Of a stretch of DNA of 64,000 bases, positions 39,446 to 61,627 are shown one piece after another (the stretch's first letter is position 1; each line of letters opens with the position of its first letter). The notes beneath the pieces were generated by a model, which had not been told where the DNA came from, did not search any database, and was given only the letters and a program-made list of their open reading frames with translations. The stretch covers positions 1,487-65,486 of the forward strand of contig JAZUGI010000024.1 of the NCBI GenBank assembly GCA_045641125.1, read 5' to 3'. This DNA is from Akkermansia sp. GTDB lineage: Bacteria > Verrucomicrobiota > Verrucomicrobiia > Verrucomicrobiales > Akkermansiaceae. The position numbers and the translations under genes were made by a program.

Positions 39446-39451
39446 AAAATT

Positions 39452-43293: not shown

Positions 43294-43302
43294 TTTTGAT
43301 GA

Positions 43303-43332
43303 GCGGTGGGAGTCAGGCTTGACTCCCACCGC
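43303..43332 (+). other. perfect 13-bp stem-loop after the capsid gene
   Basis: GCGGTGGGAGTCA-ggct-TGACTCCCACCGC with no T-run. It may be a transcript-stabilising or attenuating hairpin. Confidence 0.5.
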
Positions 43333-43371
43333 ATAAGGCAAGTTCAATCTTTCTTAAACTAAAAAATCTTT

Positions 43372-43821: not shown

Positions 43822-43851
43822 TCACTTTCTTCGCATCATCAGAAATTATCA

Positions 43852-43877
43852 GGGAGCCTTACTTGGCTCCCTTTTTT
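43852..43877 (+). terminator. rho-independent terminator
   Basis: GGGAGCC-ttactt-GGCTCCC followed by TTTTTT. Confidence 0.6.
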
Positions 43878-44440
43878 CTTGCGTAGTACGCTTTTCTTGC
43901 TTCGCTGATTTTCAATCTCGTTTCTTCTGACAACTTCTATCCCGTTTTGCTTTTGTTGCCTTTGTGTGCAAGTTTCATTTTGGAGATTTGCTCGTTTGAA
44001 TAAACTCCAATTTTACCCTTGTTCCAAGGGATATTCCCTTTAAGTGTTTCGCTGATTTTCTTTCTTTGTGACTTGGGAATGATTTTCCCTTTTTGCGCTT
44101 CGCCTATTTTTCGTTTATGCTCTTCGGAATGAGGAATACCCTTTAACGCACCACCTACACCCTCACCACCGTCTGCAAGGTTGACACAATACTCACCCAT
44201 GACTGCTCGATAATGAGCAATGTACCTTTTTTCCAATTCGTCTATCGTCTCTTTAGTGTTGGCATAAGCGATAATCACCTTGACGCACTCATCAGGGTGT
44301 TTCTTGTATATCCTTCTCCAAATCTTACCTGAGCCATGATACCCATCATTATCCGCAGTTTGCCCCTATGGAAGTTTGTGCTGTCCAACGTACACGCGCC
44401 CGCTTGGAAGATGAATCATCTTGTAGACGTAAAAGGTCAT
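43859..44440 (-). CDS. second GIY-YIG/NUMOD3 homing-endonuclease-like protein, 2 in-frame TAGs
   Basis: MTFYVYKMIHLPSGRVYVGQHKLP*G... has a TAG at 44366. The track ORF stops at TAG 43937, but read-through gives KLSEETRLKISEARKAYYARKKGAK, another NUMOD3 repeat, and ends at TAA 43859. It is a paralogue of 29837..30367. Confidence 0.8.
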
Positions 44441-44503
44441 TCTGTTCTTTAATTAGTGCAATAATAATCGAGTTCTACTTCCTTTTTTTATCCAAGGGTA
44501 GAA

Positions 44504-44839
44504 ATGAATGAACTTCAAAAATTCATGGCATAGGCGGTTGCGGATTAGGTACGCACAGCGGGCGAGGACGTGGTTATAACGCGCCCGAAGGAGCAATGCG
44601 TCTAGATATACTGCAAGGCGGTCATAACGAGCCGTGATGGCTCATTTCAGGCTGCTATCGGTGGGGCAGAATACTCGGTCACGGGTCACGCCCTGATACA
44701 ACACACTTCGCTGAACGGTGGCTATCCCAAAGCAGGAGACAATCTGCAACAGGCAAGCGGTGAGCGGTGGATAATCACCAACACCATCATGTCGAACAAT
44801 GACGCCGCTATATCTTGTGACCTCGTAAGGATGGCATAA
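44504..44839 (+). CDS. putative head-tail adaptor/closure protein, 3 in-frame TAGs
   Basis: 111 codons, invisible in the track because the fragments are under 60 aa. TAGs are at 44531, 44546 and 44603. The C-terminal ..GERWIITNTIMSNND..ISCDLV resembles head-tail joining proteins. Confidence 0.45.
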
Positions 44840-44841
44840 TC

Positions 44842-45729
44842 ATGGAGAATGTAACACTACCAGGAGGAAAGCTGCTACAGGTGTACTCATGCGTCAAGGT
44901 GCATGAGAAGCAGATTGCCGACACTATCCGCGGCATAGTGTAGAACGGCTTGAAGCACGTCATGCAGACCGTGACGAACAAGATTGTGTCACGCACTCTG
45001 CCGAACACTCCCCAAAATACTGGCAGCGTATCGAAGAAGAACGTGACCGCGCTACGCAAGCGCATTCGCAAGAACTTCCTCAACGATGGAGATTTTTTGC
45101 AGACCTATCCCAACCACTACGGCAAACCGATCTTCGATGATGACGTTGCAAGCGGCTCAACCGCTCTTCCCGTGGTGGTTGTCAGACCCTACAGAGGACG
45201 CCCGAAGAAGGGTCGCAAAGTTAATCAGCCTGACAGGATATACGAGCCGCATGCGCTGCTTTCCTACCTTGACCGCTACACAGAGTTCCGCAAGAAGAAA
45301 AAAGCGGTGATGCGATACAAGAAACAGGGCGCGCACTTAGTGTGGACAACGAAGCAAAATCTGCAAGAGGCTTCACGCATTATGGAAGCGCGTGCGGGTA
45401 ACAACATTTTCGGCTGGAACAGTCTTGCTTCACAGGTGGGCAGCGCGGCAATGAGCAAGTCGCTAAACGTGGGCAAAGGACGCTTTGACAGTCCTGGTGG
45501 AAGTGCGCGCATTACCCCTGCAACATTCAGCTCGGTTGACTCCATGCGTATACAGGCGTTGAACACAAACGCACCGCAAGAGACAACAGGCTATCAGCAG
45601 CGCGTGATTGACGTCAATATACCGAAGTGGATGCAAAACGCATTTGCGCGCGACTTGAAGTTTATGACTCCTAGGAAGCTGCTCAAAGGCGTTAAACTAC
45701 CGCCTGATATTACAGTCACTTGGGATTGA
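44842..45729 (+). CDS. hypothetical neck/tail protein, 1 in-frame TAG
   Basis: ATG at 44842 and TAG at 44941 joining to the track ORF 44950-45729. The middle is basic. Confidence 0.55.
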
Positions 45730-45755
45730 ATTTCCTTTTTCAAATCATTTATAGC

Positions 45756-46175
45756 ATGGAGAGTATACAGTCATTCACCGCAAAACTTGCAGCCGCGTTT
45801 TCATAGCAACAACCAAACAACGCCGCGCTCACTTGGGACTTTCGCGGTGAAGTTGCAGACATGGTGGAGTACGAGAACACACTCATCGGCATTGTCAGTT
45901 TTAGCACGTCCACCGAAGAACTGTATGGCAACCGCACGCAAAGACTGGAGGGTAGCTTAACAGGTCAAATCAGAATAGAGCAGATGACAAACGCGCAGAT
46001 ATTGTCATGCCTGAACTAGCTACAGACCATCCTTTACGACTATATCGGTGGACTTCGCTACACAGAGATTGGTGACGCCGTAGTGTTGCAGGGTACTTGC
46101 GACTCCATACTCACGCAGTAGAACGGCACTTATTTTCAGTTCGTTCTTCCCATCAATCTCGTTGTTCAATTTTAA
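45756..46175 (+). CDS. hypothetical virion protein, 3 in-frame TAGs
   Basis: 139 codons, not in the track. TAGs are at 45804, 46017 and 46119. No TAA or TGA in frame. TAA stop at 46173. Confidence 0.5.
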
Positions 46176-46189
46176 CGTCAATTTTCAAC

Positions 46190-47707
46190 ATGAATACAAA
46201 GGTACAGAACTTTTCACTCGTAGAGGGAAGCCGAAGCAGAATTGTCATCAAGCTGCCTGACGGTGCTGACCCCTATAGCTACACAGTCACGGCGGGCAAC
46301 GACAGGTGTCAACAGCGTCATTTGCAGTACGAGGTTGACTCCATATCAGACCACACAATCACCATGCTATCTGAACCCGCGCCAAGTTGCATGACGATAC
46401 CCTACCAGTTGTTCATCACCGACAACAACTCACACGTCGAGTGGTTCGTAATTAGTGGGTACGTCACAGTCATCAGGCGTCTTGTAGGCGGTGCAAACAC
46501 GGAGTCGCAGGAGATTGAGCCACCCTTGTCTGAACAGGTGCTAGAGTTAAACGTCACGTTGGAGTATAGCAAGGCTGATTTGGATGAAGCGGTGGCACTA
46601 GCACTAGGAGCCGCAAGCAATGCACAGCAGTCAGCCGTTGACGCTGGAAGCTCTGCGGGATTGGCGTGGGATTATGCACAATGCGCCCATCGTGCCGTGA
46701 GTGATATAGGGTCAAGTGTAGAGTCTGCTTGGAGTGCAGCGGGTAAATCACAAGAATGGAGCGAGCTTGCAAGACAGTACAAGGAACAATCTTGTTGTTA
46801 CAAGAAACTAGCGTTTAATTACGCGAGCTCGTCGGAAATGTTCGCGACTACGACAACATTTAATGCAAACAGAGCGGAGAAGGCAGAGCAATTATCATGC
46901 CAAGGTGCGACAGTATCTAAAAACTTCGCCCTTTGTGCGAGAAAGTGGTCAATGTGTGCAGCAGCGTACAAGAATGGAGCCCAATTATCAGCCAGCAGCG
47001 CAGAAACGTATAAAAATCAGGCTTTGAGCTACATGAACCAGTCATGCTCATACGCATCAACCGCAAGTCAAGCAGCCAATCAAGCATCTCAATACTCCTC
47101 AGCCGCTTGTGCCGCACGGGATGAAGCATGCTCATATGCAACCAGCGCATGCAACGCTGCAACGGAAGCGCAATAGAAATCATCACAGGCTGGTTCATAC
47201 GCAGATTGTTCGGCAACGTGGGCTCACAGCGCGTGCCATCACTCACAGCAAGCTCAATCATATGCGTTTTGTGCGTGCAGTTACGCCGCATCAGCACAAT
47301 CCGCCGCTGCATCAGCACAATGCGCCGCTGACGCTGCGAGACAATACGTGAGTCAGTTTATCCAAGGTCCAACTTGGAGAGACGTGCAACCATGCACAGT
47401 CATCACCATGCGAAATAACGAGGTCGGTATAATTGTTGCTCCTTGTGACGCCTAGCATGCCGCTCATTATCCAATACAGTTAAATCCCAACACCACGACC
47501 GAGCTTTACTTGGATTATGGAGCTGATTTTGAAGGTCAAGAGGTCAGTTTCCCTGCATGTTGGAAGTGGATTAACGACTCACTCCCCGAAAACTTTGAAG
47601 CGGGTAACATTTATCGCATAGCCGTGCGTGATGACAGTCCATTTGACTCATGTGGACTACACACACCTCGAATCATAGCCAATGTGGCTTACGAATATCA
47701 AAAGTAA
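46190..47707 (+). CDS. tail-fibre-like protein with Ala/Ser/Cys-rich repeat region, 2 in-frame TAGs
   Basis: It has long A-x-x-S-A/Q-type repeats like phage fibre shafts. TAGs at 47174 and 47453 join it to the track ORF 47510-47707. Confidence 0.55.
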
Positions 47708-47720
47708 CTTTTAAACGAAC

Positions 47721-48266
47721 ATGAAAAAGATTTACGCTAAAATTATAGACGGACGTCTTCAATACATGGGGCGTGTTCCTAACGTGGTGAACGCCACCGA
47801 AGAGACGCGCGAACATTACGCACGCGAAAACGGCTTCAAAGAGTATCTACACACTACACAGCCGAGCCGCTTTTACGTCCAGAGCTACACAGAGAGCGAC
47901 ACGCTCATCACGGATGAGTGGACGCCCTGTGACCTAGAACAAGCAAAGCAGAGCGCATTGGAAGAAGTGTAGAACAATCTCACCCACGAGCTAAGAGAAA
48001 GAAGAAGCATTGAATGTGATGGCTTCGCCAATCTCATCATCTACGACCAGGACGCATTGACTAACGCTACAGGCTTGACCGCTGGCGACATGTTCATTGA
48101 CGCTGCGGATGAAGTTCACCAGCTCACCGCTGATGACGTATCGCGCATTCAAGCGGCTTTGAAAAACTACCGCCTGACGCTCTATGCAGCCGCTACAACG
48201 CGCCGCGCTTCCATTTCCGCTGCAACTACCGTGGACGAGGTGGAACGCGCCTTAAACGGCAACTGA
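47721..48266 (+). CDS. DUF4376-like fibre-associated/assembly protein, 1 in-frame TAG
   Basis: TAG at 47970 joins 47721-47972 with 48057-48266. The C-terminal pattern (..IIYDQDALTNATGL..FIDAADEVHQLTADDVSRIQAAL) is DUF4376-like. Confidence 0.45.
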
Positions 48267-48290
48267 CGCCCCTACACAGGCAAGGTTCAG

Positions 48291-48316
48291 GCACACTCTG
48301 GCGAGTGTGCTTTTTC
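48291..48316 (+). terminator. rho-independent terminator
   Basis: GCACACTC-tggc-GAGTGTGC followed by TTTTT. Confidence 0.6.
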
Positions 48317-48345
48317 CTTTTTCGTTCCCATGGTAAGGTCAATTT

Positions 48346-48843
48346 ATGAATTTGCAGATACCGTAGGACACGAGAAGAATAATCCTCGTCAGCAACGTAG
48401 AACAGCCGCCCGCCTTTACTTTCAAGGATGGTGATTTGGTAGTGGAGATGAACAAGGCGGTACACCACGACAAGCTCATTGCCGTTTTGGGTGCGGCTCC
48501 AATAAAAAAGTTTTTATTCATCAGGCACAACAAAAAGGGGCATTTTTTCCCCTAGAACTTCACGGAAAAGTCCAGCACTTGGGACAACATTGTGATGAGC
48601 AGCGAACTCTACGGCTTCGCGTCAGAACGCTGGTTCGCAGACTACAGCCGCGCAACAGATGGCAAGACTCCCACCACGGGATATGGACTCTACAAGATTT
48701 TCAGATCACGCCGCCCGAACATGCCTATCATTGGGCTGGGATTTAACCCTGACGACCACACCACGCCGCATTCACCTATGCACGCATGGGAGTACGAGTG
48801 GGAGCAGTACAGGCACGACAAACATTTTCAACTACACGCATGA
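48346..48843 (+). CDS. hypothetical protein, 2 in-frame TAGs
   Basis: ATG at 48346, with TAGs at 48364 and 48553 joining to the track ORF 48592-48843. This is preferred over the two minus-strand track ORFs here. Confidence 0.5.
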
Positions 48844-49604
48844 ACAAGGAAGATTTTACACAGATAGGAACAAGCATTGAGTCGGTCGATTTGGCGGCAT
48901 TGTTGATTGCATTGGAATTTCCCCTCCTCTCCTGCAACACGGTAGAAGGCGTGAACCTCGATGGTGGAGCGACACCGCGCAAGACCATCACGTGGAAGTT
49001 CGGCAAGGTAAGTGAGAACGGCAAACACAGACTGGATGAAGTACGGCGCAAGTGGATATTGCCAAAAGAATTCACCTTGGACGATTACCAGTTGTCACGC
49101 CTTCTTGCCTAGAACTTGGGTATATTGAAGAACTTGTCCAAGCACCCTGCTTCCATCTTGTGGAACGACTTTGACGGTATCGGTCAGCTATCGAGCAGGG
49201 AGTGTTCCAAGAAGTGCAAAGAGCTACCAATATCGGCAAGGGGCTTCGGCGGCATTTGTGACACGTCTACAATCGCCCTAGCAATCACGCTTGGAGTCAT
49301 CCCTAGTGCCATGTATATGGACAATGGAAGATTGCATGTGAGCTTCACACGCACGGCAAACAGCGTAAACTTGGACGATGTGATACGCATGCTGAAAGAC
49401 CCCAACATGAGAAGGCGCGACAACACGAACGCGGTTGCAACTCTCATTTGCCAGTTGGACAACCGTGCAGAGATTTTAGCAAACATTGACGCCATGCGGA
49501 AAAAAATTCGCCTCATCGGTGATGGTGGAGAAACACAGGTCATGTTCGAGCAGGGCAAACTCAAAGAGAAAGACAAGGCAAAAATCAAAGACCTGTTCAG
49601 CTAA
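48840..49604 (+). CDS. hypothetical protein, 1 in-frame TAG
   Basis: The start has ATGA overlap with the upstream stop. TAG at 49110 joins 48840-49112 with 49116-49604. Confidence 0.55.
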
Positions 49605-49638
49605 GCATTTTCCTTTTTGAACGTATTGTAGAACAACC

Positions 49639-51678
49639 ATGAGCAAAGGCACAATCCAAGTTGACGTACAGGCAAACACGCAAAAGGCGACACAGTAGGT
49701 GAAGAAGCTGCAAAGCGACTTGCAGTCAAGCTCATCTTCGGGCAAGTTCGATTTTGGTGGACTGGATGGGATATAGAGCAAGTTCGCAGAGATTAAGAAC
49801 GGACTGACCAGCATAGGTGAGACGTCCTCAATCAAAACAGTAGCACAGGGGTTGAAAGGTCTTGGCAAGGGTGCAGTCGGTGCGGGTGCTGCGATAGGCG
49901 GTCTAGCGGTGGTTGTGAAGACCGTGGACGCGCAGATTGACCGCATGATTCAGACTGGCATGGAAGCAGAAAAACAGTTCCAGCGCACAAACGTCACGCT
50001 CACCAATCTTGACCGCAATCTTGGCGGCGCGGGCAGGAGCTTCGATGGCTTCACAAAAGAGCTGCAACTCATGGCGGCGAACGGTGTCAATTCCGTGGAC
50101 GAGCTTAATTCAGCAGCGCAGTAGTTGATGACCGCATTCGATGGCAACTCTACAAAGGCGCGCAAACTTCTATCCACCTTCGATGACCTTGCGGCTGGCA
50201 CGGGTGTTCAGGTGAGCGATTGGGCAAGCATGGCGTCAGAGGTGAGCCTGACAGGTGTTTCCATTAAGGACTTGACGCGCCTTTCAAATAAGGGCATACC
50301 CATCTATCAGGCACTCGGTGACGCCATGAACGTCACAGCAGAGCAAGCCGAGAGCGTGGCAAAGGCTGGACAGGTGGGGATGGAGGATTGGTTCGACGCT
50401 ATCGAGAAATTGAGCCAACGATACAAGGGATTATCCCAGCAGCTAAGCTCCTAGACGCTGGAAGGGGCGCAAAGCACGTTCGAGCAGTCTAAGGGGTTGA
50501 AGTACCAGGGAGCCGCCGAAGGGTACGCGGAAGAGCGTGTGAGAGGCTTAAACGAGATGAGCGACAAAATGCAAGAGTTCGCTCAAAATCCCGTGTGGCA
50601 AGAGACAATCTCCGTCCTTGGCGGTGTTAAGGCTGCATTTGAGAATGACGTTATTGACCCCCTGAAACAACTGCCCGCAAAGCTGGGTGATGGACTGGCA
50701 ATCACACTCGTTGGCATGGTGTCAGATCTGAAAGGAGCAGTCGAGGCGGGAGTACAGGCTAAGCAGTCTCAGAAACTGGCAGACGTGACACGCGCCGCCG
50801 CCGAGGGTATAGCTGGCAAGCTCACAGCAGGGCAGATGGAGGACGTCCTTGCTCAAATGAAGAGCGGCAAAATCAACCACGATAGCCTTCCACAAGAGCA
50901 TTGGGATAGGATGATTGCCTAGCTGGAGAACGCCCTCAAGCAGCGCAAAGAACAAGACGCACAGGACAAGGAGAAAGAGGATGCCAAAATAAAGGCCGAG
51001 AACATGCGGCAAGCGTAGCTCAAATATGGAACGCTGTAGGACAAATTAAAGGCGGTGAGCGGGCGTGATGGTGCAATGTAGATACGGATAGACTCACCGA
51101 AACAGATACAGGCGGCTATTGACAGGCTGAAATAGGACTTGCTCGATGGGAAGATTGTTGACGTCAAGGCTGGTGAGGACACCCTAAAAACGCTGGAGAG
51201 TTTGCAACGAGAATACGAGCAGCAAACACAGGCAGCGGCAAGGGCAGAGGAAGAACTAGCACGCAAGCGCAAAGAGTCAGCGGACGCCGCATTGCAAGCA
51301 AAGACTGCCGAGACGAAGCAGTATATCGAGGGCAAGGCAAGTATCGGCAAGCAAATTACAGACGCACAGAAAGACTACGACACCGTGACCGCAAAGCTGG
51401 AGCGCATGCAACAGGCAAAGCAAGTCATCCAAGACGAAGAAGCGCACGGCATTTTCCGCAAGAAGTGGGGCAACCTAAACGTGAGCGACGTCTCCACAAA
51501 GGAAGCAGAGTTGCTGAACGAGTAGAAGCAAGCAGCGTAGAAGCTGGCAGAGCTTAAACAGAGCTATGACACCTACGACCAGCGGTGGAATCAGGCGCGC
51601 ACGCAAATTCAAAACTTCTTCACGTCTGTAGTCGCCGGCAACATTGTTCCGGTCAAGGGCGTTCCCGTCACAGGTTAA
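49639..51678 (+). CDS. tail tape-measure protein, 11 in-frame TAGs
   Basis: 680 codons in one frame spanning the track ORFs 49852-50124, 50125-50454, 50497-50922 and 51139-51525. The TMP core is recognisable (GVNSVDELNSAAQ*LMTAF...LAAGTGVQVSDWASMASEVSLTGVSIKDLTRLSNKGIPIYQALGDAMNV) and the C-terminus is coiled-coil. TAGs are at 49696, 49774, 50122, 50452, 50920, 51016, 51037, 51079, 51133, 51523 and 51538. Confidence 0.75.
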
Positions 51679-51698
51679 AAAACAATTTTAGGTCAATT

Positions 51699-52106
51699 AT
51701 GAATCGCAGTATTATCGAAAATGAAATGTGTCTCCCACACGGCGAGACGGAAACGCAAATGCGTCCAATAACCATCGGCACGCTTGCAATCTTGGAGAGA
51801 CTAGGCAACCCGCTTGTCGGCACGCTCATTGGTGTAGGCAACGCGCAGTTCACAGACTCGGTGGAGAACTTGCTTGAACTGTTTTACATTCACAGCGTGG
51901 ATGACTCGCAGCTCTACAGCATTGTTGACGCACTCTACACCGACCCTGACAGCGTAAAGAAGGACGCCGTATTGTGGGGCAAAGACATGAGCGTTGACGA
52001 GATTGCAGACAACTTGAACAAGCTGCTTCATCAGCAAGGACTAATTCAAGGCTCGATGGTGGAGACGGTGAAGAACAAGGCGCGCAAGTCACCAAAAAAA
52101 GTTTGA
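51699..52106 (+). CDS. hypothetical protein (TAG-free)
   Basis: 135 aa from ATG 51699 within track ORF 51585-52106. Confidence 0.5.
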   Translation: MNRSIIENEMCLPHGETETQMRPITIGTLAILERLGNPLVGTLIGVGNAQFTDSVENLLELFYIHSVDDSQLYSIVDALYTDPDSVKKDAVLWGKDMSVDEIADNLNKLLHQQGLIQGSMVETVKNKARKSPKKV

Positions 52107-52303
52107 GTCAGTCGTTCTTAGTGTGGCTCATGTCACTAATCGCGTGCGAGACAGGATGGCACTTGGACTATATCCGCTCGTTGCCGTTCTATCAGGTCTT
52201 GCAAGTTCTAGCTTTCAAGCTGCAATGGGAGGGCAATGAGCTTCGCTGGAAGAAGCGCGCATGTGACAACGAGCGGCTGAACAAGTTTATTGAGTCACTT
52301 TAA
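52103..52303 (+). CDS. hypothetical small protein
   Basis: A 66-aa ORF with an uncertain start (TTG 52103, GTG 52121 or ATG 52130). Confidence 0.35.
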   Translation: MSQSFLVWLMSLIACETGWHLDYIRSLPFYQVLQVLAFKLQWEGNELRWKKRACDNERLNKFIESL

Positions 52304-52329
52304 TTTTCCTTTTCAACTTAAAGATAGAA

Positions 52330-52674
52330 ATGTCACAGAAACAGATAAAGACGTGGGGAAAGATTGGCGGCTTTGAGTCGTTGGCCAAATCTTGGAGTGA
52401 CCCGCCTACTGGATGGGCGTTTTGGCCGCTTTATCTCAAATGCGCCGACTATGCAGAAACGATTATCCACGGTGATGATTGCAGCGTCATGCATGACGCC
52501 TCATGCTTTAATGCAGACTTAGGAACGGAAGGTCACGGCGAACGCATTACTTTCTACGACTTCACGTTCTAGACAGGGCAACCGCAAGCAACGATGACCG
52601 TTCGGCGTGGCACGGCAAAGAAGAAGCCCGAAGAAACGTGTTGCCGATACCTAGATTGGAGGATTTTTAAATGA
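52330..52674 (+). CDS. hypothetical protein, 1 in-frame TAG
   Basis: Read-through of TAG 52570 adds 33 aa. The ORF then ends at a TGA that overlaps the next ATG (ATGA at 52671-52674). Confidence 0.55.
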
Positions 52675-53708
52675 GTACGATAATTGACCCCCTTGGCGAG
52701 ATAGGTGCAGATTATTTGAAGCCTATAAAGAAGTTCGGCAAGCTGCAATCTGACAGCGGAAGCGGTGTTGTCGGGCATTGGCAGAAACCGAGCGCGTCCT
52801 ACTTGGAAGAAAAAGGATGGGAACTTGGCGGTGACGCCGTGACCTACAACTACAAAGGCGGCGAAAGTGTGGTGAACGACATTCTCTCACGCTTCCCAGC
52901 CGAGCCCACACAGGCGGGCGGAAACGGCGTGCAAGTCACCTTGTCGCAGGATGGTGAACCGCTGGGGAATATCAGCGTCACGGTTTTGCAGGTGAAGATG
53001 AAGCCGCGCGGTGAGACACCGAAAGAAGAAGCAGACTTCGGCTCTGATGGTGAGGGCAACACCGACTATGATTTGTGGAGCATGAAGAAAGACAAGCAGC
53101 TCACCAATGACAAGTGGAAAATCGAGTGGGAGGACACGAAAAACTGGTTGCCCTTCTCGTACTACGGCAAACAACTCATCGACCCTTGGACAATATCTGC
53201 ATACAAGCTCCTTGTCGATGGTGACCACTTCCTTGGAGACGTCATCACCATGTCTGACGGTACTGGAGAAAAGACGCAAGAGCTACGAAAGTTTGAGCAG
53301 ACTAGCACTCACAGCGATATTCAAGGATGGGATATATCTCACATCAACCCCATCAGCAGAAACTCCTTGGCATACAACAGGCTTATGCAAGAAAGAGTCC
53401 TAGTCCTCACGCACAGTTGGAGTGAGTAGTGGGTAGTATCGGCAAAGAAGTTTGAGAAAATGCAAGACGAAGAGGACGAGCTGACTGGTACTCAAATGCA
53501 GAAATATGGGAACGAGATTGCAAAGGGAACAATCGTCATTTCAACGACTGGCAGGGGCAATGCAGATGGACCAGTCAAAGACGGAGAGCGCACGAGCAAG
53601 ACGTACACCATCACGCGCACCTTTACTCACAAAGAAGAATTCACATCACCGTCACAACTGCCAGTAGGACTGAAACTCAAAGTCCCTGACAAAGAGCCTA
53701 ATCCATAA
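52671..53708 (+). CDS. hypothetical tail protein, 1 in-frame TAG
   Basis: TAG at 53427 joins 52671-53429 with 53460-53708 in frame. Confidence 0.55.
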
Positions 53709-53737
53709 TTTCCCTTTCAACTCCTTTAGTAAGAAAA

Positions 53738-54748
53738 ATGTATACTTGGACACCTAACGAAACAATCACGGCTGCGAAGTTGAACGCCATGCAAAATCGT
53801 CCAAATATGGAGGACGTGGGCAAAGGTGGTATCAGCTTCGGTGGCATAGAGTCAAGCGCATTGTCACCGAGCGAAATCTGTGTTGCTACGTCTCCGATTT
53901 TCAATGGACCTGTCAAGCTTAGCATTACTGAACACGAAGTAGGCAATCTGAAGTTTGAGTACGACTAGGGAAGTGAGGCGTGGAAAGTGCGTTCAGGTCA
54001 TTCAGGTGTCACAGGACGTGGCACGTTCGGTGCCGAGGGTTACAGGTGGCTATGCACGTCTCAATTTCCAACGGATGGCAAAAAATACGTTTGGGATAGA
54101 ATAGACGTTGACTCATACGGTACGCCGACACGCATACGCACTTGTATCACCACACAGGGTGTCATGCCGACTTGTTTGTGGTAGCCGTACTGCGGAAAAT
54201 CCGGCGTGATTTGGCGTAGGCTGGCAACCGTTGAAGTGGACAATCAGCTTGCATGCGGTTCTTCATGTCCGCCCGCTTGGGCTTATAAAATCACCAACGA
54301 AAACAACGCTTTCGCACTACCTATCGCACGAAGCTGGGGATGGCACAATACCGACACCATACGCATTGACGAAGGCTTATTGAGTGACAGGGGCAGTTCA
54401 TCACATTGGTCACGCACCGTGGCAGGTGACTAGGGATTGTCAACGATGGTGCAAAATATCGGAGAGTTAGGCGGCACGTTCGTCTACGACACTTTCCAAT
54501 GCTCGTATGGTGATTGCAACCGCGTTGGAATAGGCATTGCCAGCGGTGTTGAGTTCTACGATGAAGAAACGTACCGCGCATGCTACAACCGCACCGAAAC
54601 ACGTCCTAAAGCTCGTACTGCAAAGGTGGATATAGGATGTGGAAAGTACCTGTTCATTCAGCCAATCAACCAGCTCCACCCGTGGCAATTCCTCGTTTAT
54701 GCCTCTTGTCACGCGCAGTCAGCATTCATCAATGGACCATCCCGCTGA
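53738..54748 (+). CDS. Cys/Trp-rich hypothetical tail or receptor-binding protein, 3 in-frame TAGs
   Basis: Four track ORFs (53738, 53987, 54206, 54437) share one frame and are joined by TAGs at 53966, 54182 and 54431. Confidence 0.6.
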
Positions 54749-54775
54749 CGGTGATTTTGGGATAAATAGCAGGGT

Positions 54776-55489
54776 ATGAAAAAACTTTTTTAGATATGGG
54801 AGGGCAGTATACCCGACAACGTGCAGAAAGAGATTGACGACCTACGAGACAAGGCAACGGCGGCGGGATATGAGTACCACCTGTACGACCTGTCAATGCT
54901 GCTGGCAGAGATACAGGACGAGAACTTGAAAGAGTCCTTGCGCCGCGCTAAGCGGTATCTCCCCAAATCAATGTTCGGCAGCATGCTTAGTGACTTCTTC
55001 CGCTATTGGTGCTTACAGGATGGTGGAGTCTATATGGACACAGACGTTCTCATCACCACCGACACGTTCCCCGCATTGCCTGACGCTGATGGTGTGTTCA
55101 CTTGCTCGGAGCAGACCGCAAGAAACAACCTGAACACATGCGTCACGGTCTGCAACGGTGACAAGGGGCGCATATACGCGCGATTTTTCACAGAGCTGGC
55201 AACAGACAGACTCAAAAAGACGTGGCTGGACTCTTTCGAGCAATGCAGGGCGAACGCTGGATGGCTTATTGAGCACAAGTGGTCGTTGATTTCGTACCTA
55301 GGTCCTGCGTTCGTGCGGCATTATCTGCCACACTTGTTCGGCGCAACTGGAGTGACCGTCCAGCGCATGCCCTACGAGCTATGCAGCTCACACGACCCGC
55401 GCTCTGCAATTTTCCATGCGGGTGACGGAACGTGGGTGAACGGCGGCAAGGGAAACCCCACGGCACAGCGCAAAATCTCGACTTTATGA
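54776..55489 (+). CDS. DXD-motif glycosyltransferase (Gly_transf_sug-like), 1 in-frame TAG
   Basis: MKKLF*IWEGS...GYEYHLYD...LSDFFRYWCLQDGGVYMDTDVLI. TAG at 54791 lies where the adjacent paralogue has Gln (VHQIWIGG). Confidence 0.75.
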
Positions 55490-56100
55490 AGCACCCTACA
55501 ACAGTTCATCAGATTTGGATCGGAGGCTCGGAAATGCCGCCCTTGGAAAAAACGTGCGTGGATAGCCTTAAAACGGCTTGCGAGCGTTTGGGGGTAGGGT
55601 ATACCCTTTGGAGCGAACAAACGCTTAGGAGGGCATATCCAGACGAAGGATTGTGGCTTCTCGCAGACAAGTTAGCCCCCACCGTGCGGAGAAGCGTGCT
55701 TTTGAGCGACTATTTCCGCATGATTGTGCTTAATCCTGGTGAGTGCTACCTAGATACCGATATGCTCTGCCACCACACACCCGCCATCAATTTCAAAGGC
55801 TCGTCATTGCTCTGTATGGGTGAATTCTGGGACAGGCACAAAGAGGGAACAGGCTTCATCGGCGTGCAAGACAAGTTCACAAAGTTGGACGCTTTGAAAC
55901 AGGCATGGCGTGAGCAGACGCAAAACTTGGACGAGTCGTGCGTTGACAATTTGCTTGCAGCCTATGGACCGGAGTTTTTGAGAAGCACGTTGCAGCGGCT
56001 TGGGATAAAGTCGAACATTCTACACCGCGACCAAATCACGCACGTTCAATGGAAGAACAAGGGCGCACTCATTCACATGGGAGCTGGTTCGTGGGTGTGA
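55486..56100 (+). CDS. DXD-motif glycosyltransferase paralogue (TAG-free)
   Basis: MKHPTTVHQIWIGG...GYTLWSE...LLSDYFRMIVLNPGECYLDTDMLC, with ATGA overlap with the upstream gene. Confidence 0.7.
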   Translation: MKHPTTVHQIWIGGSEMPPLEKTCVDSLKTACERLGVGYTLWSEQTLRRAYPDEGLWLLADKLAPTVRRSVLLSDYFRMIVLNPGECYLDTDMLCHHTPAINFKGSSLLCMGEFWDRHKEGTGFIGVQDKFTKLDALKQAWREQTQNLDESCVDNLLAAYGPEFLRSTLQRLGIKSNILHRDQITHVQWKNKGALIHMGAGSWV

Positions 56101-56128
56101 TTATTTTTCCCTTTTTGTCCATGGGTAT

Positions 56129-56326
56129 ATGACAAAGAAGAACAACTAGGAAATTTTGAAGAAGTACGAGAACGAGCGCAACGAGTGTCTGATTTTCACA
56201 AGGGTCATGGGATATTACAGACCTGTGACGAGCTTCAATATCGGTAAAGCGCAAGAGTTCAAGGAGCGCGTGTGGTTCAACACGCAAAAGTTCAAAGACG
56301 CGCATGCCGATAAAAACGCACGATGA
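56129..56326 (+). CDS. stand-alone NrdD C-terminal glycyl-radical-domain mini-protein, 1 in-frame TAG
   Basis: 65 codons. TRVMGYYRPVTSFNIGKAQEFKERVWF matches the class III RNR C-terminal signature RVCGYLg....FN.GK..E.K.RV. TAG is at 56147. An alternative TTG start lies at 56156. Confidence 0.6.
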
Positions 56327-56349
56327 CGATTTTGGATAAATATCTGTGT

Positions 56350-56442
56350 ATGGAAACATTTGCATTTTTGACAATCGCTGGACTCATCATCAGTAACATT
56401 ATCACAACCGCGCTGCTCTACAACACAACGAAGAAACACTAA
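56350..56442 (+). CDS. 30-aa single-TM peptide
   Basis: METFAFLTIAGLIISNIITTALLYNTTKKH, preceded by the GGATAAATA motif at fixed spacing. Confidence 0.35.
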   Translation: METFAFLTIAGLIISNIITTALLYNTTKKH

Positions 56443-56446
56443 GGAC

Positions 56447-56764
56447 ATGACAAGGGAAAAATTGAAACAGGCGTGCGACAGCATGCGAGAGACTTTGCAA
56501 AACTGCTCACTTGAAGTGACAGAGTAGGAGATTGACGAGGTTCTGACCTATGCAGCGGAGCACAATGCGCGCAGGATTGGTGAAACGTACACGACAAGCT
56601 ATCCACCCTTGCTCACAGAGCTGCAAAACAGGTTAAGGAAGTTGGACGAGAGCGACTGCCCACCGCAAGTTGAAGAAGGTCTGCTCACTCATATCACGCT
56701 TGACACGTTAGAAGGTTATTTGCCGCTGGAGAATATCATCGGGTTTAGCTACAAAAGACCGTGA
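56447..56764 (+). CDS. hypothetical protein, 1 in-frame TAG
   Basis: 105 codons, with TAG at 56525 and a TGA stop. Confidence 0.45.
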
Positions 56765-56766
56765 GC

Positions 56767-57051
56767 ATGGACGAGTTTGAAACAGAGTGGGAAGAAATGG
56801 ACGCAAAGATACTCGCGTCTGACTTGTTCGATGAGGCAGAGAAACAAGCCCTGATTGAGTACCTAGACAAGCTCAACGTGAACACCTATGCAGACCTGAA
56901 AAAACTTGCCCCAACGTGCAAGGGCAAATTGTGGACAGATGAGCAGCGAGATTTTTTCACGTTGTTCTTCTCTAACTCTGAACTCGGTATCAGAAAGAAA
57001 TACGAGAGGAAAAGCAAGACCACAAACGAAGAAAAAAAAGAGGAGTCCTGA
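56767..57051 (+). CDS. hypothetical acidic protein (TAG-free)
   Basis: A 94-aa ORF, the last gene of the rightward block. Confidence 0.45.
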   Translation: MDEFETEWEEMDAKILASDLFDEAEKQALIEYLDKLNVNTYADLKKLAPTCKGKLWTDEQRDFFTLFFSNSELGIRKKYERKSKTTNEEKKEES

Positions 57052-57060
57052 TGGACTCCT
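57041..57060. terminator. bidirectional terminator hairpin between convergent blocks
   Basis: AGGAGTCC-tgat-GGACTCCT with an A-run upstream, which is a T-run on the minus strand. Confidence 0.55.
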
Positions 57061-57083
57061 CCCTGCGTTTCTATATGGTGGCA

Positions 57084-57512
57084 CTAGTAGTCAGACGGTC
57101 GCATGATGGTGGTATGCTCACGCTTGCCCTCATCGTTCTCTGCGTCTGTAATAATCCACACGCGCTCACCGCCTATCTCCCACTCTGACAGAATACGCTC
57201 ACCGCTTTTAAGGGCGCGGAAGTTTGCCCACCAGTCAGACCCCTTTGTCAATCCCCAGTTGCAAAAGCGGTGTTCCTCAAGGGCGTGTGCAATGTCGTAG
57301 CGGTATTCTTCCATGCGCTCTGCCAGCTCTGCCGTGATAACCACCTGTCCCAGCGGGAAATCAACGTAGGTGAAATGCAAGCCATGCGTGGGCTCACGGT
57401 GGAAGAACTTGGCAATCTCACGGCGCAGATTAGGCATTTTCTCATCGTCTATGGGGAAGAGCCTAGACTTGCCATCCCCATAGGGATTTTTCAGTAGTAG
57501 CACGGTCATCAT
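57084..57512 (-). CDS. hypothetical early protein (TAG-free, terminates at TAG)
   Basis: 142 aa from MMTVLLLKNPYG. Stop codon is TAG at 57084-57086. Confidence 0.5.
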   Translation of the reverse strand: MMTVLLLKNPYGDGKSRLFPIDDEKMPNLRREIAKFFHREPTHGLHFTYVDFPLGQVVITAELAERMEEYRYDIAHALEEHRFCNWGLTKGSDWWANFRALKSGERILSEWEIGGERVWIITDAENDEGKREHTTIMRPSDY

Positions 57513-57516
57513 GGCT

Positions 57517-57792
57517 TTACTTGGCAAAGAGCGTTTTGACGTACTTGATGGACTCACGCCCGACCAGCATAGCAAGCGGTGAAGTGCGGTGTATACGCGC
57601 ACGGCGCAAGACGTTCTTGATGAACTGCTCGTTCTCTGCAACGAGCTTGAACCTATCTTCCGCAGGTGCTTTGAACAGCTCCGCGAGTGAGATTGTGTCT
57701 TGTATGGCAGCGTCAGTCACGCGCTCTACAATCTGTGACAGCGTGGCGACTTCAACCGTGTTGTTCTTTGTGTTGTTCTTCTTAGTTCTCAT
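57517..57792 (-). CDS. hypothetical early protein
   Basis: 91 aa from MRTKKNNTK, with a TAA stop. Confidence 0.45.
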   Translation of the reverse strand: MRTKKNNTKNNTVEVATLSQIVERVTDAAIQDTISLAELFKAPAEDRFKLVAENEQFIKNVLRRARIHRTSPLAMLVGRESIKYVKTLFAK

Positions 57793-57808
57793 ATTTGGGA
57801 TTTCCTTT

Positions 57809-57958
57809 CTATTTTTGTTTCTTTTTGCAGGGCGCGAGTGCAAGTTGTTTGTACTCTGTGAACGCCCTGATGAATGAGCCTAGTTGCAGGTGATATGCAT
57901 CTTTCCAAGTAATACCAGCTTCGCCACATGTTTTAGAGTGCGTCCACCCGTTGACCAT
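57809..57958 (-). CDS. small HTH-like protein (Cro/excisionase-like guess)
   Basis: 49 aa: MVNGWTHSKTCGEAGITWKDAYHLQLGSF.. It stops at TAG. An upstream ATG at 58006 would require reading a TAG. Confidence 0.3.
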   Translation of the reverse strand: MVNGWTHSKTCGEAGITWKDAYHLQLGSFIRAFTEYKQLALAPCKKKQK

Positions 57959-58042
57959 GCTGTTCTTCCAAAGTGCAAGCTATCTTCTGTACCCTTGCTC
58001 ACCCATCAGGGCGCGCACGCATTAACGCACGCGCTCACCCGT

Positions 58043-58285
58043 TCAACCACGTGGGAACTCCAACTCATACTGTCTACCACTTGGCTCACGCTGTACAAGA
58101 ATGAGCTTGTCTGGCAGTATGGTCATGTCAACCACTTCATCTGGATAAATGTCAATGCAGCAATATGCACCACCACCAGCATCAAGTGTGACGTATGGCA
58201 ATCCGTCCATAGTCTCGCTGTAGTCAATGCCACACACGTCGAACAGGTCTTTAATGAATTTGATAATTTCTTGTTCCTCTTGCAT
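58043..58285 (-). CDS. hypothetical early protein
   Basis: 80 aa from MQEEQEIIKF. It is the first gene of the leftward early operon. Confidence 0.45.
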   Translation of the reverse strand: MQEEQEIIKFIKDLFDVCGIDYSETMDGLPYVTLDAGGGAYCCIDIYPDEVVDMTILPDKLILVQREPSGRQYELEFPRG

Positions 58286-58508
58286 AGTCTTTTCTGTTTT
58301 GTTGTTGAAGCAGGGCAACACGTCTTTCGCCCTATGATGATACTTTACCTGGAATTATTCCAGTATGCAAGTCTTTTTTTCGTCGAAAGTCACTTTTTTT
58401 CAAGGAGTAACGACTGCCGAGACTGGGAAGCCGCATGGAATCGGCGTTTTATTTTTTATACGAAAAATAGGAAATTTCCAAATTTTGCTATTTCGGAGCA
58501 TTTTTTGC

Positions 58509-58537
58509 TTTACAAATTGGGTCGGGTGTGGTACAAT
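58509..58537 (+). promoter_or_regulatory. sigma70-type promoter for the 58547 gene
   Basis: TTTACA, a 17-nt spacer, then TACAAT preceded by TGg (extended -10). It lies 10 nt upstream of ATG 58547. Confidence 0.55.
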
Positions 58538-58546
58538 ATCGACCTT

Positions 58547-59074
58547 ATGAACGAAATCGAACACGACGCCGCGAGCGTCACTGAAAACGGGGTTGACCTG
58601 AACGCAGGGCAGCCGGAAGCAAAGCAAGTAACTAACAAGAAAAATAATTGGTACGCCGAATGGATAGACGATGAGTCCTGTAGGGATATCGACTGTATCT
58701 ACAACGCAATTAGGTACATTGAGGAAATTAACGAGATGGCCGCGCGAGGTGTTGATACAGAGGATGAAGAAATACGGGATGCGTTATATATGGCGATTAT
58801 GGATTACACCAAAGGAGCAAAAGACTGGAATCACGAAATATTGAAGGAAAAGTTGGGACTTGGGTTTATGAGTGTACACACTGACGGAGATTGGAAGTTC
58901 CAAGTCAGTGAGGTCAACCCAAAATACATAAGGTACGTCTACGACAAATTATGTGAGCAAGGACGTGCAAAGAATGCGCCTAGTGTATATACTAGAGAAG
59001 AGAACAGTGAGAGTTACACAGATGACGATGGCTATATCATTATCAAATACGAAGTAATAAAGTCGCTCAAATGA
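58547..59074 (+). CDS. hypothetical protein next to the integrase (TAG-free)
   Basis: 175 aa from MNEIEHDAAS within track ORF 57884-59074. The upstream part of that ORF is a shadow. Confidence 0.5.
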   Translation: MNEIEHDAASVTENGVDLNAGQPEAKQVTNKKNNWYAEWIDDESCRDIDCIYNAIRYIEEINEMAARGVDTEDEEIRDALYMAIMDYTKGAKDWNHEILKEKLGLGFMSVHTDGDWKFQVSEVNPKYIRYVYDKLCEQGRAKNAPSVYTREENSESYTDDDGYIIIKYEVIKSLK

Positions 59075-59103
59075 ATCATGGGGGCAAGGCAAAGCACAAT
59101 CAA

Positions 59104-59138
59104 GGGGAGCAGCCGCAAGGTGAACTCCCCTTTTTTTT
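59104..59138 (+). terminator. rho-independent terminator
   Basis: GGGGAG...CTCCCC stem followed by TTTTTTTT. Confidence 0.5.
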
Positions 59139-59155
59139 GCACCTGTGCGGCGCGT

Positions 59156-60760
59156 CTACTCTATCAAATCTTGCTTGCCTGTGAGCTGCTTTGCATTGCC
59201 ATCTTCCCCAGCCGCCGACACGTTTTCCAGCACCTGTGAGAAGAAGTCGGACATGATTGTGTTCACCCTTTGCTTGTCTTTCATCACTTCCTGTGCAAGC
59301 CGCAACGCCTCATCATTTGCGCCCGTGTCAACGGTGCTGCTCACGTCACTCTTAAAGCTGTCCACCGAACTATATCCCATGCTCTCCAAGGTCTTTTTAA
59401 TCACCAGCTCCCTGGCTATCCTCTCGGCTTCTCGCTGTGTCTTGCTCTGCGTCTCTTTGTTCAGCCGTGCAAGGTAGTCTCGCCGCTGATTTTCTTCGTG
59501 TAGATACCGCGCGCCGATATACTGCTCCATATACTCAAGCATGCCCGCCGTGGACTTTTGGGGGTCAAGGTCAAACTTTAGGTAGTGCCGCTCCTCTACG
59601 GTGCGCGGCGAGTGTCCAACGAGATAATTAATCATCGACTCGTTAAAGCCACCTTGCGTGAGAACTGTGATGGCGGTGGCTCGGAGAGAGTGTGGGCTAT
59701 ACGCAAAGAAGCGGCGATTGAACTTTGTGTCGATAGCCGCAAACAATCCCAAGTGCTTTATGCAAGACAGGAGGAAATTTCGCACATTCTGCATAGCCGA
59801 CTTGTTCAGGTTTTGAGGCTTCACTCCACAGCGGCGCAAAGGGAACAGGAGCGGTGAGTCTCCATCTTTTGGCTGGCATAGAGTCTTCACTTCTGTCAGC
59901 AGCTCATGCATTTTGTCCGTGATATAAAGGCGCGCGTGTATCTGCTTCTTAGCAGTCTTTTTGAAAATCTTGGTGATTACCCGCCGCTCCATATCCACTT
60001 CTTCCCAGCGCAAGCCTACCACGTCTCCGATTCGCCACCCTGTAACCATCATCAGGTAAACGATGGCATAACGCTGGAAAATGCGTTCGGGTGTCATTGT
60101 GTACCCGCGCCCGTTGACGTCTTTCTTGTCCTTAGCCTTGGCAAGAATGAACTGGAGATCTGACTGGGAGAAGATACTGCGGCGATTGCCATGCTGCTCC
60201 TCTCGCAGCTCCTTAAATCTAACGCCGCTGAACGGATTGTAGTATTTCAGCGCAGAGCCTCTGAACTCCTTTAGCGCGCCGCGCAGTACCACGTCCACGC
60301 GGTTGAGAATGTCGCAGAACGTGTTGTACGAGTACGGCTCCAATGACGCTGCAAAATCTTCCACAAGCTTGTCGTCTAGCTCGTGCAGCTTCATCCCCTT
60401 GCGGTGTTCTTTCAGGTAGTCAACAAAGAGCTGGAAGCGGCGTGTCTCCTGCTTTATAACGTCCTCATTCTTGCTGATACAGATGGCAGATTGAGGCAAC
60501 GACTCTAGGTATCGCACGGCGTCCTTGGCTTCGTTGATTGCACCATGCAACACTTCAATCTCATCGGTGGCAAGCTCGATTTTGGCGTACTCTTTTTTCA
60601 GCTCCTTTATCCGCGCCGCTTGCTCTCGTTTGGTGGGCTTCGGTGTCTCACTCTTCACTTGCTTGCGACCGTAGGGGTACTTCATGCCCTGCTTCACCTT
60701 GGAGTAGTCCTTGTAGATGATGACGTAGGCATTCTTTTCGGCATTGTAGGTGATTTTCAT
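59156..60760 (-). CDS. int: tyrosine recombinase / phage integrase (TAG-free, terminates at TAG)
   Basis: 534 aa from MKITYNAEKNAY. The catalytic-domain motifs are TGWRIGDVVGLRWEEV (Arg I), HSLRATAIT (H-x-x-R) and LVGHSPRTVEERHY (His...Tyr). The upstream 221 aa of the 755-aa track ORF cross attR and are not real. Confidence 0.9.
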   Translation of the reverse strand: MKITYNAEKNAYVIIYKDYSKVKQGMKYPYGRKQVKSETPKPTKREQAARIKELKKEYAKIELATDEIEVLHGAINEAKDAVRYLESLPQSAICISKNEDVIKQETRRFQLFVDYLKEHRKGMKLHELDDKLVEDFAASLEPYSYNTFCDILNRVDVVLRGALKEFRGSALKYYNPFSGVRFKELREEQHGNRRSIFSQSDLQFILAKAKDKKDVNGRGYTMTPERIFQRYAIVYLMMVTGWRIGDVVGLRWEEVDMERRVITKIFKKTAKKQIHARLYITDKMHELLTEVKTLCQPKDGDSPLLFPLRRCGVKPQNLNKSAMQNVRNFLLSCIKHLGLFAAIDTKFNRRFFAYSPHSLRATAITVLTQGGFNESMINYLVGHSPRTVEERHYLKFDLDPQKSTAGMLEYMEQYIGARYLHEENQRRDYLARLNKETQSKTQREAERIARELVIKKTLESMGYSSVDSFKSDVSSTVDTGANDEALRLAQEVMKDKQRVNTIMSDFFSQVLENVSAAGEDGNAKQLTGKQDLIE

Positions 60761-60951
60761 GGCTGGTTGTTTTGGGGGTTGTGACCAGCGTAGCACGGCA
60801 CTCGGCGGCGTGCAAGCCTTCGTTGCAAAAAAGTTGCAATTTTTTGTCGGGAAATGGGTCATTTTTTGCAATTTTGGCTCATACGCCCTCCTGCTCATAT
60901 CTCCACAACACATAGAAAAACAAGGCATTACGAGGCTATAAAAAACAAATG

Positions 60952-60970
60952 CACTAATGCGGTGGGCTTC
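60952..60970. repeat. attR (imperfect direct repeat, core GCGGTGGG)
   Basis: CACTAATGCGGTGGGCTTC. Composition returns to GC-rich immediately to the right. Confidence 0.7.
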
Positions 60971-61627
60971 GACGAGTACGACTCCAAGAAGCTCGCCAAC
61001 ATTGATGTGCCGGTGAGCAAGACCATTGAGGGCCTGCGCGCCGCCGCCGGGCGCACCATGGACTCCGTGATGATTTCCGAGTTCCTGGGAACCGCACACA
61101 CCGGGGAGACAGGTGCCACCACCGTCACCTTCCCGGATGAGCAGACCATTGAGGAGGACTACGTGGAGAGCGGCACCCCGGCGGACAGCAACCTGACGCT
61201 CGGCAAGCTGCGCAAGGCGCTCAACATGCTCATGAAGGCGGAAGCCTGGAACGAGGAGCGCCGCGCCTACGGCGATGAGCTGGTGCTCGCCTGCACCAGC
61301 AGCCAGATCAACGCCCTGCTGCAGCAGCCGGAAGTCTCCAGCTACGAGTACAACACCGTGCGTGCCCTGGCAGAGGGCAAGCTGGATTCCTTTATGGGAT
61401 TCCGCATCATCCGCACGGAGCAACTCCCGATTGACGACGATGACATCCGCTCCTGCCTTGCCTGGGTCAAGAGCCGCGCAGCCTTCGGCATTTGGGATGA
61501 TTTCAAGGTGCGTATCTCCGTGAGAGACGACCTGGACGAAACCCTGCAGGTGCGCGCCAAGTTCGCATGCGGCGCCACGCGTCTGCAGGAGGCCGGCTTT
61601 GTGAAGATTCTCTGCGCAGAGTCCTGA
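60959..61627 (+). pseudogene. 3' fragment (about 220 codons) of the host ORF split by the prophage
   Basis: From the core (A V G F D E Y D S K K L...) the frame is the same as in the 5' fragment. It is GC-rich and ends ...GFVKILCAES. Confidence 0.7.

Follow-up and report, generated by a model that had tools for sequence, protein, structure and literature searches.

The stretch of DNA analysed here (hereafter the window) comprises 64,000 nucleotides of a contig from Akkermansia sp. (JAZUGI010000024.1, positions 1,487 to 65,486) and carries, at approximately 29.8-61.0 kb, an insert with 49% GC against around 63% GC for the host part of the window. This insert is a complete integrated prophage in which most genes appear to read the amber codon TAG as glutamine (Gln), while the integrase and the four small genes beside it contain no in-frame TAG and in part use it as a stop. 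The limits of the prophage (29745..60966) were established from composition, empty sites and junction alignment. Aligning an empty site with both junctions identified an attachment (att) core of 8 bp, GCGGTGGG, which is found on the + strand at 29745..29752 (attL, reading ..ACCAAGGCGGTGGGGTTTAG..) and at 60959..60966 (attR, reading ..CACTAATGCGGTGGGCTTCGAC..), 31,214 bp from core to core; the corresponding attB (..ACCAAGGCCGTGGGCTTCGAC..) is that of the empty site. In 8 of 8 related Akkermansia contigs (L007-L014; e.g. L009:11667-12578) the site lies in an uninterrupted gene for a 303-amino-acid (aa) Phage_capsid_2 protein, in a common neighbourhood made up of a gltX-like gene, queA and the genes of a PEGA protein, a hexapeptide transferase and MatE. 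In the window, the 5' part of this capsid-like gene is at 29502..29752 (+) and its 3' part at 60959..61627 (+; Pfam PF19821, 5e-53, profile positions 74-293). The att cores and the empty-site junctions therefore identify a site-specifically integrated prophage. Of ten flanking ORFs compared by exact sequence, nine are present in the protein collection; three of these (TypA, QueA and a pyridoxal phosphate-dependent enzyme) belong to clusters whose named members all come from Akkermansia sp. MAGs. TAG is the stop of 3 of the 26 host genes. The element is a temperate tailed phage of 31.2 kb, inserted by a tyrosine integrase into a standard-code Akkermansia sp. chromosome. Its target gene stands alone among housekeeping genes, is disrupted by lysogeny and resembles a capsid-like gene that has been domesticated or orphaned. 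The possibility that the GC-rich flank with this capsid gene is a second prophage was rejected, the neighbours being housekeeping genes. A TerL-based search for related loci among viral contigs found none, and an integrase search of genome contigs returned only irrelevant matches of 29-38 residues in Bacteroidaceae and Kaistella.

The curated gene set of the prophage comprises 43 genes, 5 inside the integrase block (57084-60760) and 38 outside it. Outside the block, 61 in-frame TAGs were counted in 8,524 codons (0.72% of codons and 13.8% of TAG, CAA and CAG together), and 29 of the 38 genes contain them. Translation with TAG as a sense codon fills the + strand between 32.5 and 57.05 kb with 35 genes placed end to end, a rightward arm (32511..57051) with 56 in-frame TAGs and exclusively TAA (19) and TGA (16) as stops. 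No in-frame TAA or TGA occurs within the frames of the recoded genes, and profile matches run across the TAGs of TerL, the portal, the head protease, the major capsid protein, the tape measure (TMP_3) and three homing endonucleases, one HNH and two GIY-YIG. Where relatives are aligned, the residue that faces TAG is most often, by a wide margin, a Gln (32 of 86 aligned), and Gln is invariant at conserved TAG sites such as RSPQKL, ITTAQDLYE, FNQLQSY and KDYEQVNHV. L017 is a copy integrated in the identical site in a different sample, with 96-97% identity; 8 of the 14 sense-TAG differences between both copies are exchanges of TAG with CAG or CAA, which have occurred in both directions. Within each gene, the codons that follow its first TAG evolve with a dN/dS of 0.15 (2,654 codons), versus 0.22 for those that precede it, which indicates that the sequence beyond the TAGs is translated.

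Standard-code gene callers fragment the prophage genes, as would be expected from a decaying prophage whose TAGs are nonsense mutations. Nevertheless, the frames are interrupted by TAG only, never by TAA or TGA, no frame-disrupting indels were seen in conserved genes and intact copies are found in several samples. Together with the Gln residues opposite TAG and the low dN/dS beyond it, these observations make decay hardly credible. Judging from the alignments and the substitution patterns, TAG encodes Gln in roughly three out of four genes of the phage, including the DNA polymerase, packaging, head and tail genes and three homing endonucleases. The first TAG comes very early, at codon 6-57, in the protease, TerL, a putative small terminase, the tape measure and the polymerase. 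An initial, sequence-only reading of the window had stated that none of 27 TAG-containing genes ends in TAG; this is circular, since the open reading frames (ORFs) were defined by reading through TAG, and the count is 29. The same reading had extended TAG avoidance to an "early" module, which is contradicted by the four in-frame TAGs of the polymerase gene (30775..32418). Purines occupy the position after a sense TAG in 75% of the cases (46/61), against 51% after CAG (P=9e-4), and this trend is repeated in the relatives L006 (77%) and L015 (68%). In amber-suppression work, a purine 3' of TAG is a suppression-friendly context. The context of the TAGs suggests competition with a release factor 1 (RF1) that is still active.

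The integrase block is organized differently. The tyrosine integrase (534 aa; 59156..60760, -; Pfam PF00589 Phage_integrase, 1.4e-14; phrog_1, 2.2e-29) has all the catalytic residues of tyrosine recombinases (R243, H357xxR360, H383 and Y393), contains no sense TAG and ends in TAG. Its family has 3 matches among 5.8 billion proteins, all of them in this lineage. The adjacent convergent gene (58547..59074, +; stop TGA) encodes a 175-aa acidic protein without family matches, in a variable slot where relatives have an unrelated gene of 223-235 aa. The leftward operon is made up of an 80-aa gene (58043..58285, -; stop TGA), with a 95% identical ortholog in L016 and a dN/dS of 0.10 versus L017, a gene for a helical 91-aa protein (57517..57792, -; stop TAA) and a 141-aa gene (57084..57509, -; stop TAG). 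As the sequence-only reading had claimed, no in-frame TAG is present in the integrase, in the 175-aa gene or in this operon (58285 to 57084). The 91-aa gene is the only small block gene that also has a homolog in L015; its single-sequence AF2 model (pLDDT 64) is all-helical and too poor to be interpreted or used in a fold search. Copies that are 96% identical elsewhere differ from each other at 94 of the 141 codons of the 141-aa gene. The gene calls in L016 and the low dN/dS versus L017 (0.08-0.28 for the 80-, 91- and 141-aa genes and the integrase) support that these four genes are real. A promoter-like TTGCAT-N17-TAAAGT (58342..58370, -) upstream of the leftward operon is kept in L016, where the sequence further upstream diverges, and is the predicted promoter of the operon. 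Pfam, PHROGs and NCBIfam gave no matches for the 80-, 91-, 141- and 175-aa genes, for a 95-aa gene discussed below or for most tail genes, and neither the family searches nor the 91-aa model identified a repressor among the block genes. The convergent 175-aa gene is separated from the integrase by a + strand hairpin (GGGGAG..CTCCCC, 59095-59125) with a T-run, likely the terminator of the 175-aa gene; its 15-nt loop made the automatic terminator scan skip it.

The depletion of TAG by module that had been proposed holds statistically. Over the whole block there are 0 TAGs in 1,021 codons, while 7.3 would be expected from the 0.72% of the 38 other genes (binomial P=6.5e-4, Fisher 0.0015, Gln-normalised P=0.004). 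Since out-of-frame TAGs are equally frequent in the block (20/1,021) and elsewhere (158/8,524), at about 1.9 per 100 codons in both, the depletion is frame-specific and not compositional. The integrase alone, with 0 TAGs in 534 codons, avoids TAG beyond chance (P=0.02). It might be objected that short genes, or chance, suffice to explain the absence of TAG. Each small block gene has indeed a probability of about 0.3-0.56 of containing none, and outside the block the objection is valid: nine genes lack TAG, all of 66-204 aa, and 11.2 would be expected from gene length alone, so their TAG-free status carries no meaning. It fails, however, for the block as a whole and for the integrase, whose homolog in L015 (58% identity) has 0 TAGs in 532 codons of a genome with 0.95% TAG (P=0.006). 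Chance or short length is thus a very improbable explanation of the block.

The same arrangement is found in other members of the group. In L016, whose integrase is 83% identical, the gene order and the TAG-free genes are alike and stand beside a late gene with an in-frame TAG. The TAG-free pattern of the block is kept in diverged relatives despite the fast interchange of TAG, CAG and CAA elsewhere in the genome. The partition is real, supported at about the 1e-3 level and replicated in relatives. Three further relatives (L004, L005 and L019) are not recoded: they have no in-frame TAG, and TAG is also absent from their 67 stops. In L019, which has 50.6% GC, 22 of the 24 stops are TAA. Recoded and TAG-free relatives are interleaved at 73-86% TerL identity.

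These comparisons bear on the ancestry of the block, which could have been recently acquired from a standard-code phage and be TAG-free by descent rather than by selection. The block is certainly mosaic, as indicated by the unrelated genes in the 175-aa slot, the divergence of the 141-aa gene between near-identical copies and the different integrase (373 aa) of L019. Yet the integrase family is confined to this lineage, the 58% identical integrase of the heavily recoded L015 is still TAG-free, and the GC content and out-of-frame TAG frequency of the block match those of the rest of the phage. A recent acquisition seems, in consequence, quite unlikely.

TAG is also employed as a stop in the block. 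The sequence-only reading was right that the integrase (59156) and the last gene of the operon (57084-57086) end in TAG; that makes 2 of the 5 block genes, against 0 of 67 in L004, L005 and L019 taken together (Fisher 0.004). The proportion rises to 3/6 versus 0/67 (Fisher 3e-4) if a TAG-free 95-aa gene at the prophage's opposite end is included (30475..30762, +). The TAG stop that had been proposed for this gene is plausible and indeed probable: a product read through it would run into the convergent polymerase gene, and the integrase of L015 is adjoined by a 73-aa homolog that lacks TAG. By contrast, the gene at 33878, which was also thought to end in TAG, does not: of its 122 codons the TAG is number 114, and three homologs of 121-123 aa share the 8 residues that follow. 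The integrase orthologs of L016, L017 and L018 end in TAG and that of L015 in TAA, with the same C-terminus. Similarly, the 141-aa gene has an L016 ortholog that finishes at the same position, with "..PSDY-TAG", and an L017 ortholog that ends in TAA. Since their C-termini coincide with those of the orthologs, the integrase and 141-aa TAGs are true stops. TAG is thus missing in every role from the non-recoded members, while the recoded members have it as a Gln codon in the majority of genes and, within the integrase block, as a stop.

The boundary between the two codes is a gap of 32 bp (57052-57083), flanked by the ends of the last rightward gene (57051) and of the 141-aa gene (57084). A strong intrinsic terminator with a 12-bp stem and a T-run (57037..57064, -) is located 20 nt past the TAG stop of the 141-aa gene (20-47 nt downstream), and the read-through frame beyond that TAG has no TAA or TGA before 56745. 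Read-through of the 141-aa gene would thus reach the 3' end of the transcript and produce a non-stop message, not a long C-terminal extension. The prediction that lysogeny proteins would acquire C-terminal extensions under TAG decoding consequently applies to the integrase, to which read-through would add up to 69 codons, but not to the 141-aa gene, which meets the terminator.

The agent that would decode TAG is not apparent in the prophage. ARAGORN found no tRNA in the prophage or in the 64-kb window, either by default or at thresholds down to 85%, and Rfam found none at the gathering score, nor at E<=5 over 29-61.5 kb; accordingly, no phage-encoded amber suppressor tRNA was detected. The "intron" tRNA matches reported by ARAGORN at relaxed thresholds are spurious, with introns that span 318-2,462 nt. 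The available sequence of partial relatives contains no tRNA, and family searches of the prophage proteins turned up no release factor or aminoacyl-tRNA synthetase. The proposed switching-on of TAG decoding, before which the virion genes would be unreadable, is thus overstated in that none of these components of a switch was found. Suppression would have to come from the host, from a co-resident element or from the phage itself, through an RNA or a TAG-free product. Since a phage-encoded switch must itself be TAG-free, the candidates are reduced to some 14 short TAG-free ORFs and one conserved non-coding element.

This element is a structured spacer of 250 bp between the 80-aa and 91-aa genes (57793..58042, -). 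L016 and L017 share it with around 96% identity, and the differences with L016 include two 2-nt indels and a 24-nt deletion. Its predicted RNA fold has an energy of -83.7 kcal/mol (z=-3.8), and a 17-nt inverted repeat (57997-58013, 57863-57879) encloses around 120 nt. The distant L015 retains a core of approximately 75 nt, which includes the repeats CTTTGGAAG and CTTGGAAAG and shows 4-5 compensatory pairs. The "small HTH-like ORF" that had been reported to end in TAG at 57809 falls in this spacer; it is shorter than 50 aa and the conserved sequence around it carries non-triplet indels, so that no ORF is present there. The spacer has no Rfam or tRNA match. The possibility that it is a tRNA with a CUA anticodon was rejected, as there is no cloverleaf and the conserved CUA is in a stem, not in a 7-nt loop. 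The spacer could be a non-coding RNA, a leader or an operator. One scenario would be that a TAG-free product or the structured spacer RNA reprograms UAG decoding without any phage tRNA, for instance by disabling host RF1, after which the host tRNA-Gln would read UAG. Combined with read-through, this would create a reciprocal two-state toggle: the TAG-terminated lysogeny genes would be turned off at the same time by read-through, the 141-aa message becoming non-stop. Such a toggle is conceivable, though rather doubtful.

The explanation that we favor, with a probability of roughly 0.7, is that of a temperate phage with two codes, as suggested by the distribution of TAG. In an ordinary host cell, the integrase block and some short ORFs would be all that ribosomes complete, and every replication and virion protein would be cut at its first TAG. 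Lysogeny functions would then be expressed by default and lytic development would require an amber-suppressing state. Once suppression is on, the TAG-terminated genes would be read through, the integrase gaining up to 69 codons and the 141-aa gene running to a non-stop end. Several observations weigh against this explanation. The statistics depend mostly on one gene of 534 codons, to which the four small genes individually add little. The TAG stops of the block are not strictly conserved, being replaced by TAA in the L015 integrase and in the L017 141-aa gene. No suppressor was found in the prophage, which makes the switch step hypothetical. A homing endonuclease with an in-frame TAG stands between attL and the 95-aa gene, so that the partition is not perfectly two-block. 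Finally, the designation "lysogeny module" is partly positional, since a function could be assigned to the integrase only and no repressor was identified; the earlier idea that lysogeny genes are readable by the host thus holds in that the block is full-length in the standard code, but the lysogenic role is established for no gene other than the integrase.

Alternatively, the pattern could reflect a constraint and not a switch. In that case, the block would have to be made without a suppressor, at entry and in the lysogen, and the recoding of the other genes would have drifted in under a suppressor, with no regulatory role. The free interchange of TAG with CAG and CAA in both directions is congruent with this scenario, as is the fact that the TAG-free status of late genes tracks gene length alone. 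The non-recoded relatives without any TAG would likewise fit the neutral capture route modelled by Borges et al. The sequence pattern that this scenario predicts is identical to that of a lock, and the two are not separable here. Nevertheless, a simple constraint leaves unexplained both the return of TAG as a stop specifically in the block and the very early first TAGs of several key lytic genes. It seems somewhat unlikely for these reasons, and the two-code temperate phage is retained as the preferred explanation.

The rest of the prophage consists of replication, packaging and virion genes, together with several accessory genes. The rightward arm (+) includes TerL (37404..39137; phrog_15, 5e-67; GpA-type, PF05876), the portal (39452..40951), the protease (41163..42296), the capsid (42373..43293) and the tape measure (49639..51678; TMP_3). 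The leftward gene at 30775..32418 (-) encodes a 547-aa protein with an N-terminal winged helix-turn-helix (wHTH) and TAG at codons 57, 223, 288 and 361; its database entries are standard-code fragments that end exactly at these TAGs. Its family has 344 homologs of about 450-700 aa (P0190-P0337 among them), and no Pfam or PHROG model exists for it. An AF2 model was made of an ortholog rather than of the window protein (pLDDT 86, pTM 0.82). Foldseek searches with this model against the PDB matched only family-A DNA polymerases (Taq/Bst Pol I), with weak but uniform matches of probability up to 0.98, and against BFVD, with E values as low as 1e-7, they matched small phage proteins labelled "DNA polymerase". 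The PDB sequence search and the profile search of the 547-aa protein gave no polymerase, only a weak wHTH match, and the assignment therefore rests on the fold search. Motifs that resemble PolA motifs A, B and C can be recognized by eye (DxxSSxxR, RxxxKxxxMxxYF and YDGF), the last of them having less in common with the HDE of Pol I than with the HDSF found in T7-type RNA polymerases. The protein is best described as a strongly diverged PolA-like fold, a DNA polymerase by prediction.

Three homing endonucleases, two GIY-YIG/NUMOD3 and one HNH, each have in-frame TAGs (29837-30367, -; 33376-33843, +; 43859-44440, -). The first of them is the GIY-YIG/NUMOD3 protein next to attL (29837..30367, -; phrog_314, 4.5e-29), whose profile match spans the TAG at codon 106 and which has no counterpart at that position in L016. 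The homing endonuclease content varies among near-identical copies: L017 has two extra ones (L017:6265-6666 and 13737-14159), inserted at positions equivalent to around 49.62 kb and 56.2 kb of the window. Towards the end of the rightward arm there are two paralogous DXD glycosyltransferases (54776-55489 and 55486-56100, +), one of them TAG-free, the other with codon 6 as TAG, opposite a Gln of its paralog. A GT29 (sialyltransferase)-like gene is found at 35744-36337 (+). These glycosyltransferase-like genes could encode lysogenic-conversion or modification enzymes. A 65-aa ORF (56129-56326, +) matches only the extreme C-terminus of NrdD, in the glycyl-radical region (PF13597, 3.7e-7), and is kept in L005, L015, L016 and L019; it may encode a "spare-part" glycyl-radical peptide.

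The partition described here and its interpretation as a lock between lysis and lysogeny are already present in the literature, and the finding is confirmatory in that respect. Borges et al. (bioRxiv 10.1101/2021.08.26.457843, later Nat Microbiol 2022) described the TAG-recoded Garnet and Topaz prophages, of approximately 24 kb, in standard-code Prevotella and Oscillospiraceae. Their integrases avoid in-frame TAG and some legitimately terminate at TAG, and the authors proposed the hypothesis that the two codes partition lysis from lysogeny. The timing lock suggested by the sequence-only reading is this same hypothesis, and a reasonable one. In the model of that study, the first event is the loss of TAG stops from standard-code relatives. 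The present prophage resembles Garnet and Topaz in its small size (24-31 kb for the three), its standard-code gut host, the fragmentation of nearly all its genes by TAG and an integrase without sense TAG that sometimes has a genuine TAG end, a likeness in architecture. It differs from them in its host, Akkermansia (Verrucomicrobiota) instead of Prevotella or Oscillospiraceae, in its att site within a protein-coding capsid-like gene and not a tRNA, and in being a completely delimited element without a suppressor tRNA. Akkermansia and Verrucomicrobia are not mentioned by Borges et al. (10.1101/2021.08.26.457843), and full-text literature searches found no paper tying Akkermansia to recoded phages.

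Block-wise dual coding has also been reported in crAss-like phages with Mgcod (bioRxiv 10.1101/2022.06.29.495998), where the standard-code block consists of early and replication genes. Those phages share with this prophage the contiguous blocks, one in the standard code and one with a reassigned stop. Contrary to them and to the lytic phages in which the late genes are recoded, the polymerase is recoded here, with four TAGs, and only the 3.7-kb integrase block is standard; a standard-code block of early and replication genes is thus not found. Code 15 phages (TAG=Gln) were validated by metaproteomics by Peters et al. (Nat Commun 2022, PMC9523058). Their TAGs, like those reported here, align and exchange with Gln, although they belong to another lineage and host and the present case is known from sequence alone.

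The new contribution of this prophage is twofold. It extends amber-recoded temperate phages to Akkermansia and the Verrucomicrobiota, and it provides a completely delimited recoded prophage without suppressor tRNA, release factor or synthetase. The exact att sites, the empty sites, the near-identical copies and the existence of both recoded and TAG-free relatives make it a clean case. A suppressor tRNA was detectable in only 40% of TAG-recoded genomes (Borges et al., 10.1101/2021.08.26.457843), and the question of how the remaining 60% or so decode TAG is sharpened by this prophage. As the element is fully bounded and has no tRNA, the answer must lie in a short list of TAG-free ORFs, in one non-coding element or in the host. 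The main value of the prophage is therefore that of a compact and well-bounded system in which code switching by tRNA-less recoded phages could be studied.

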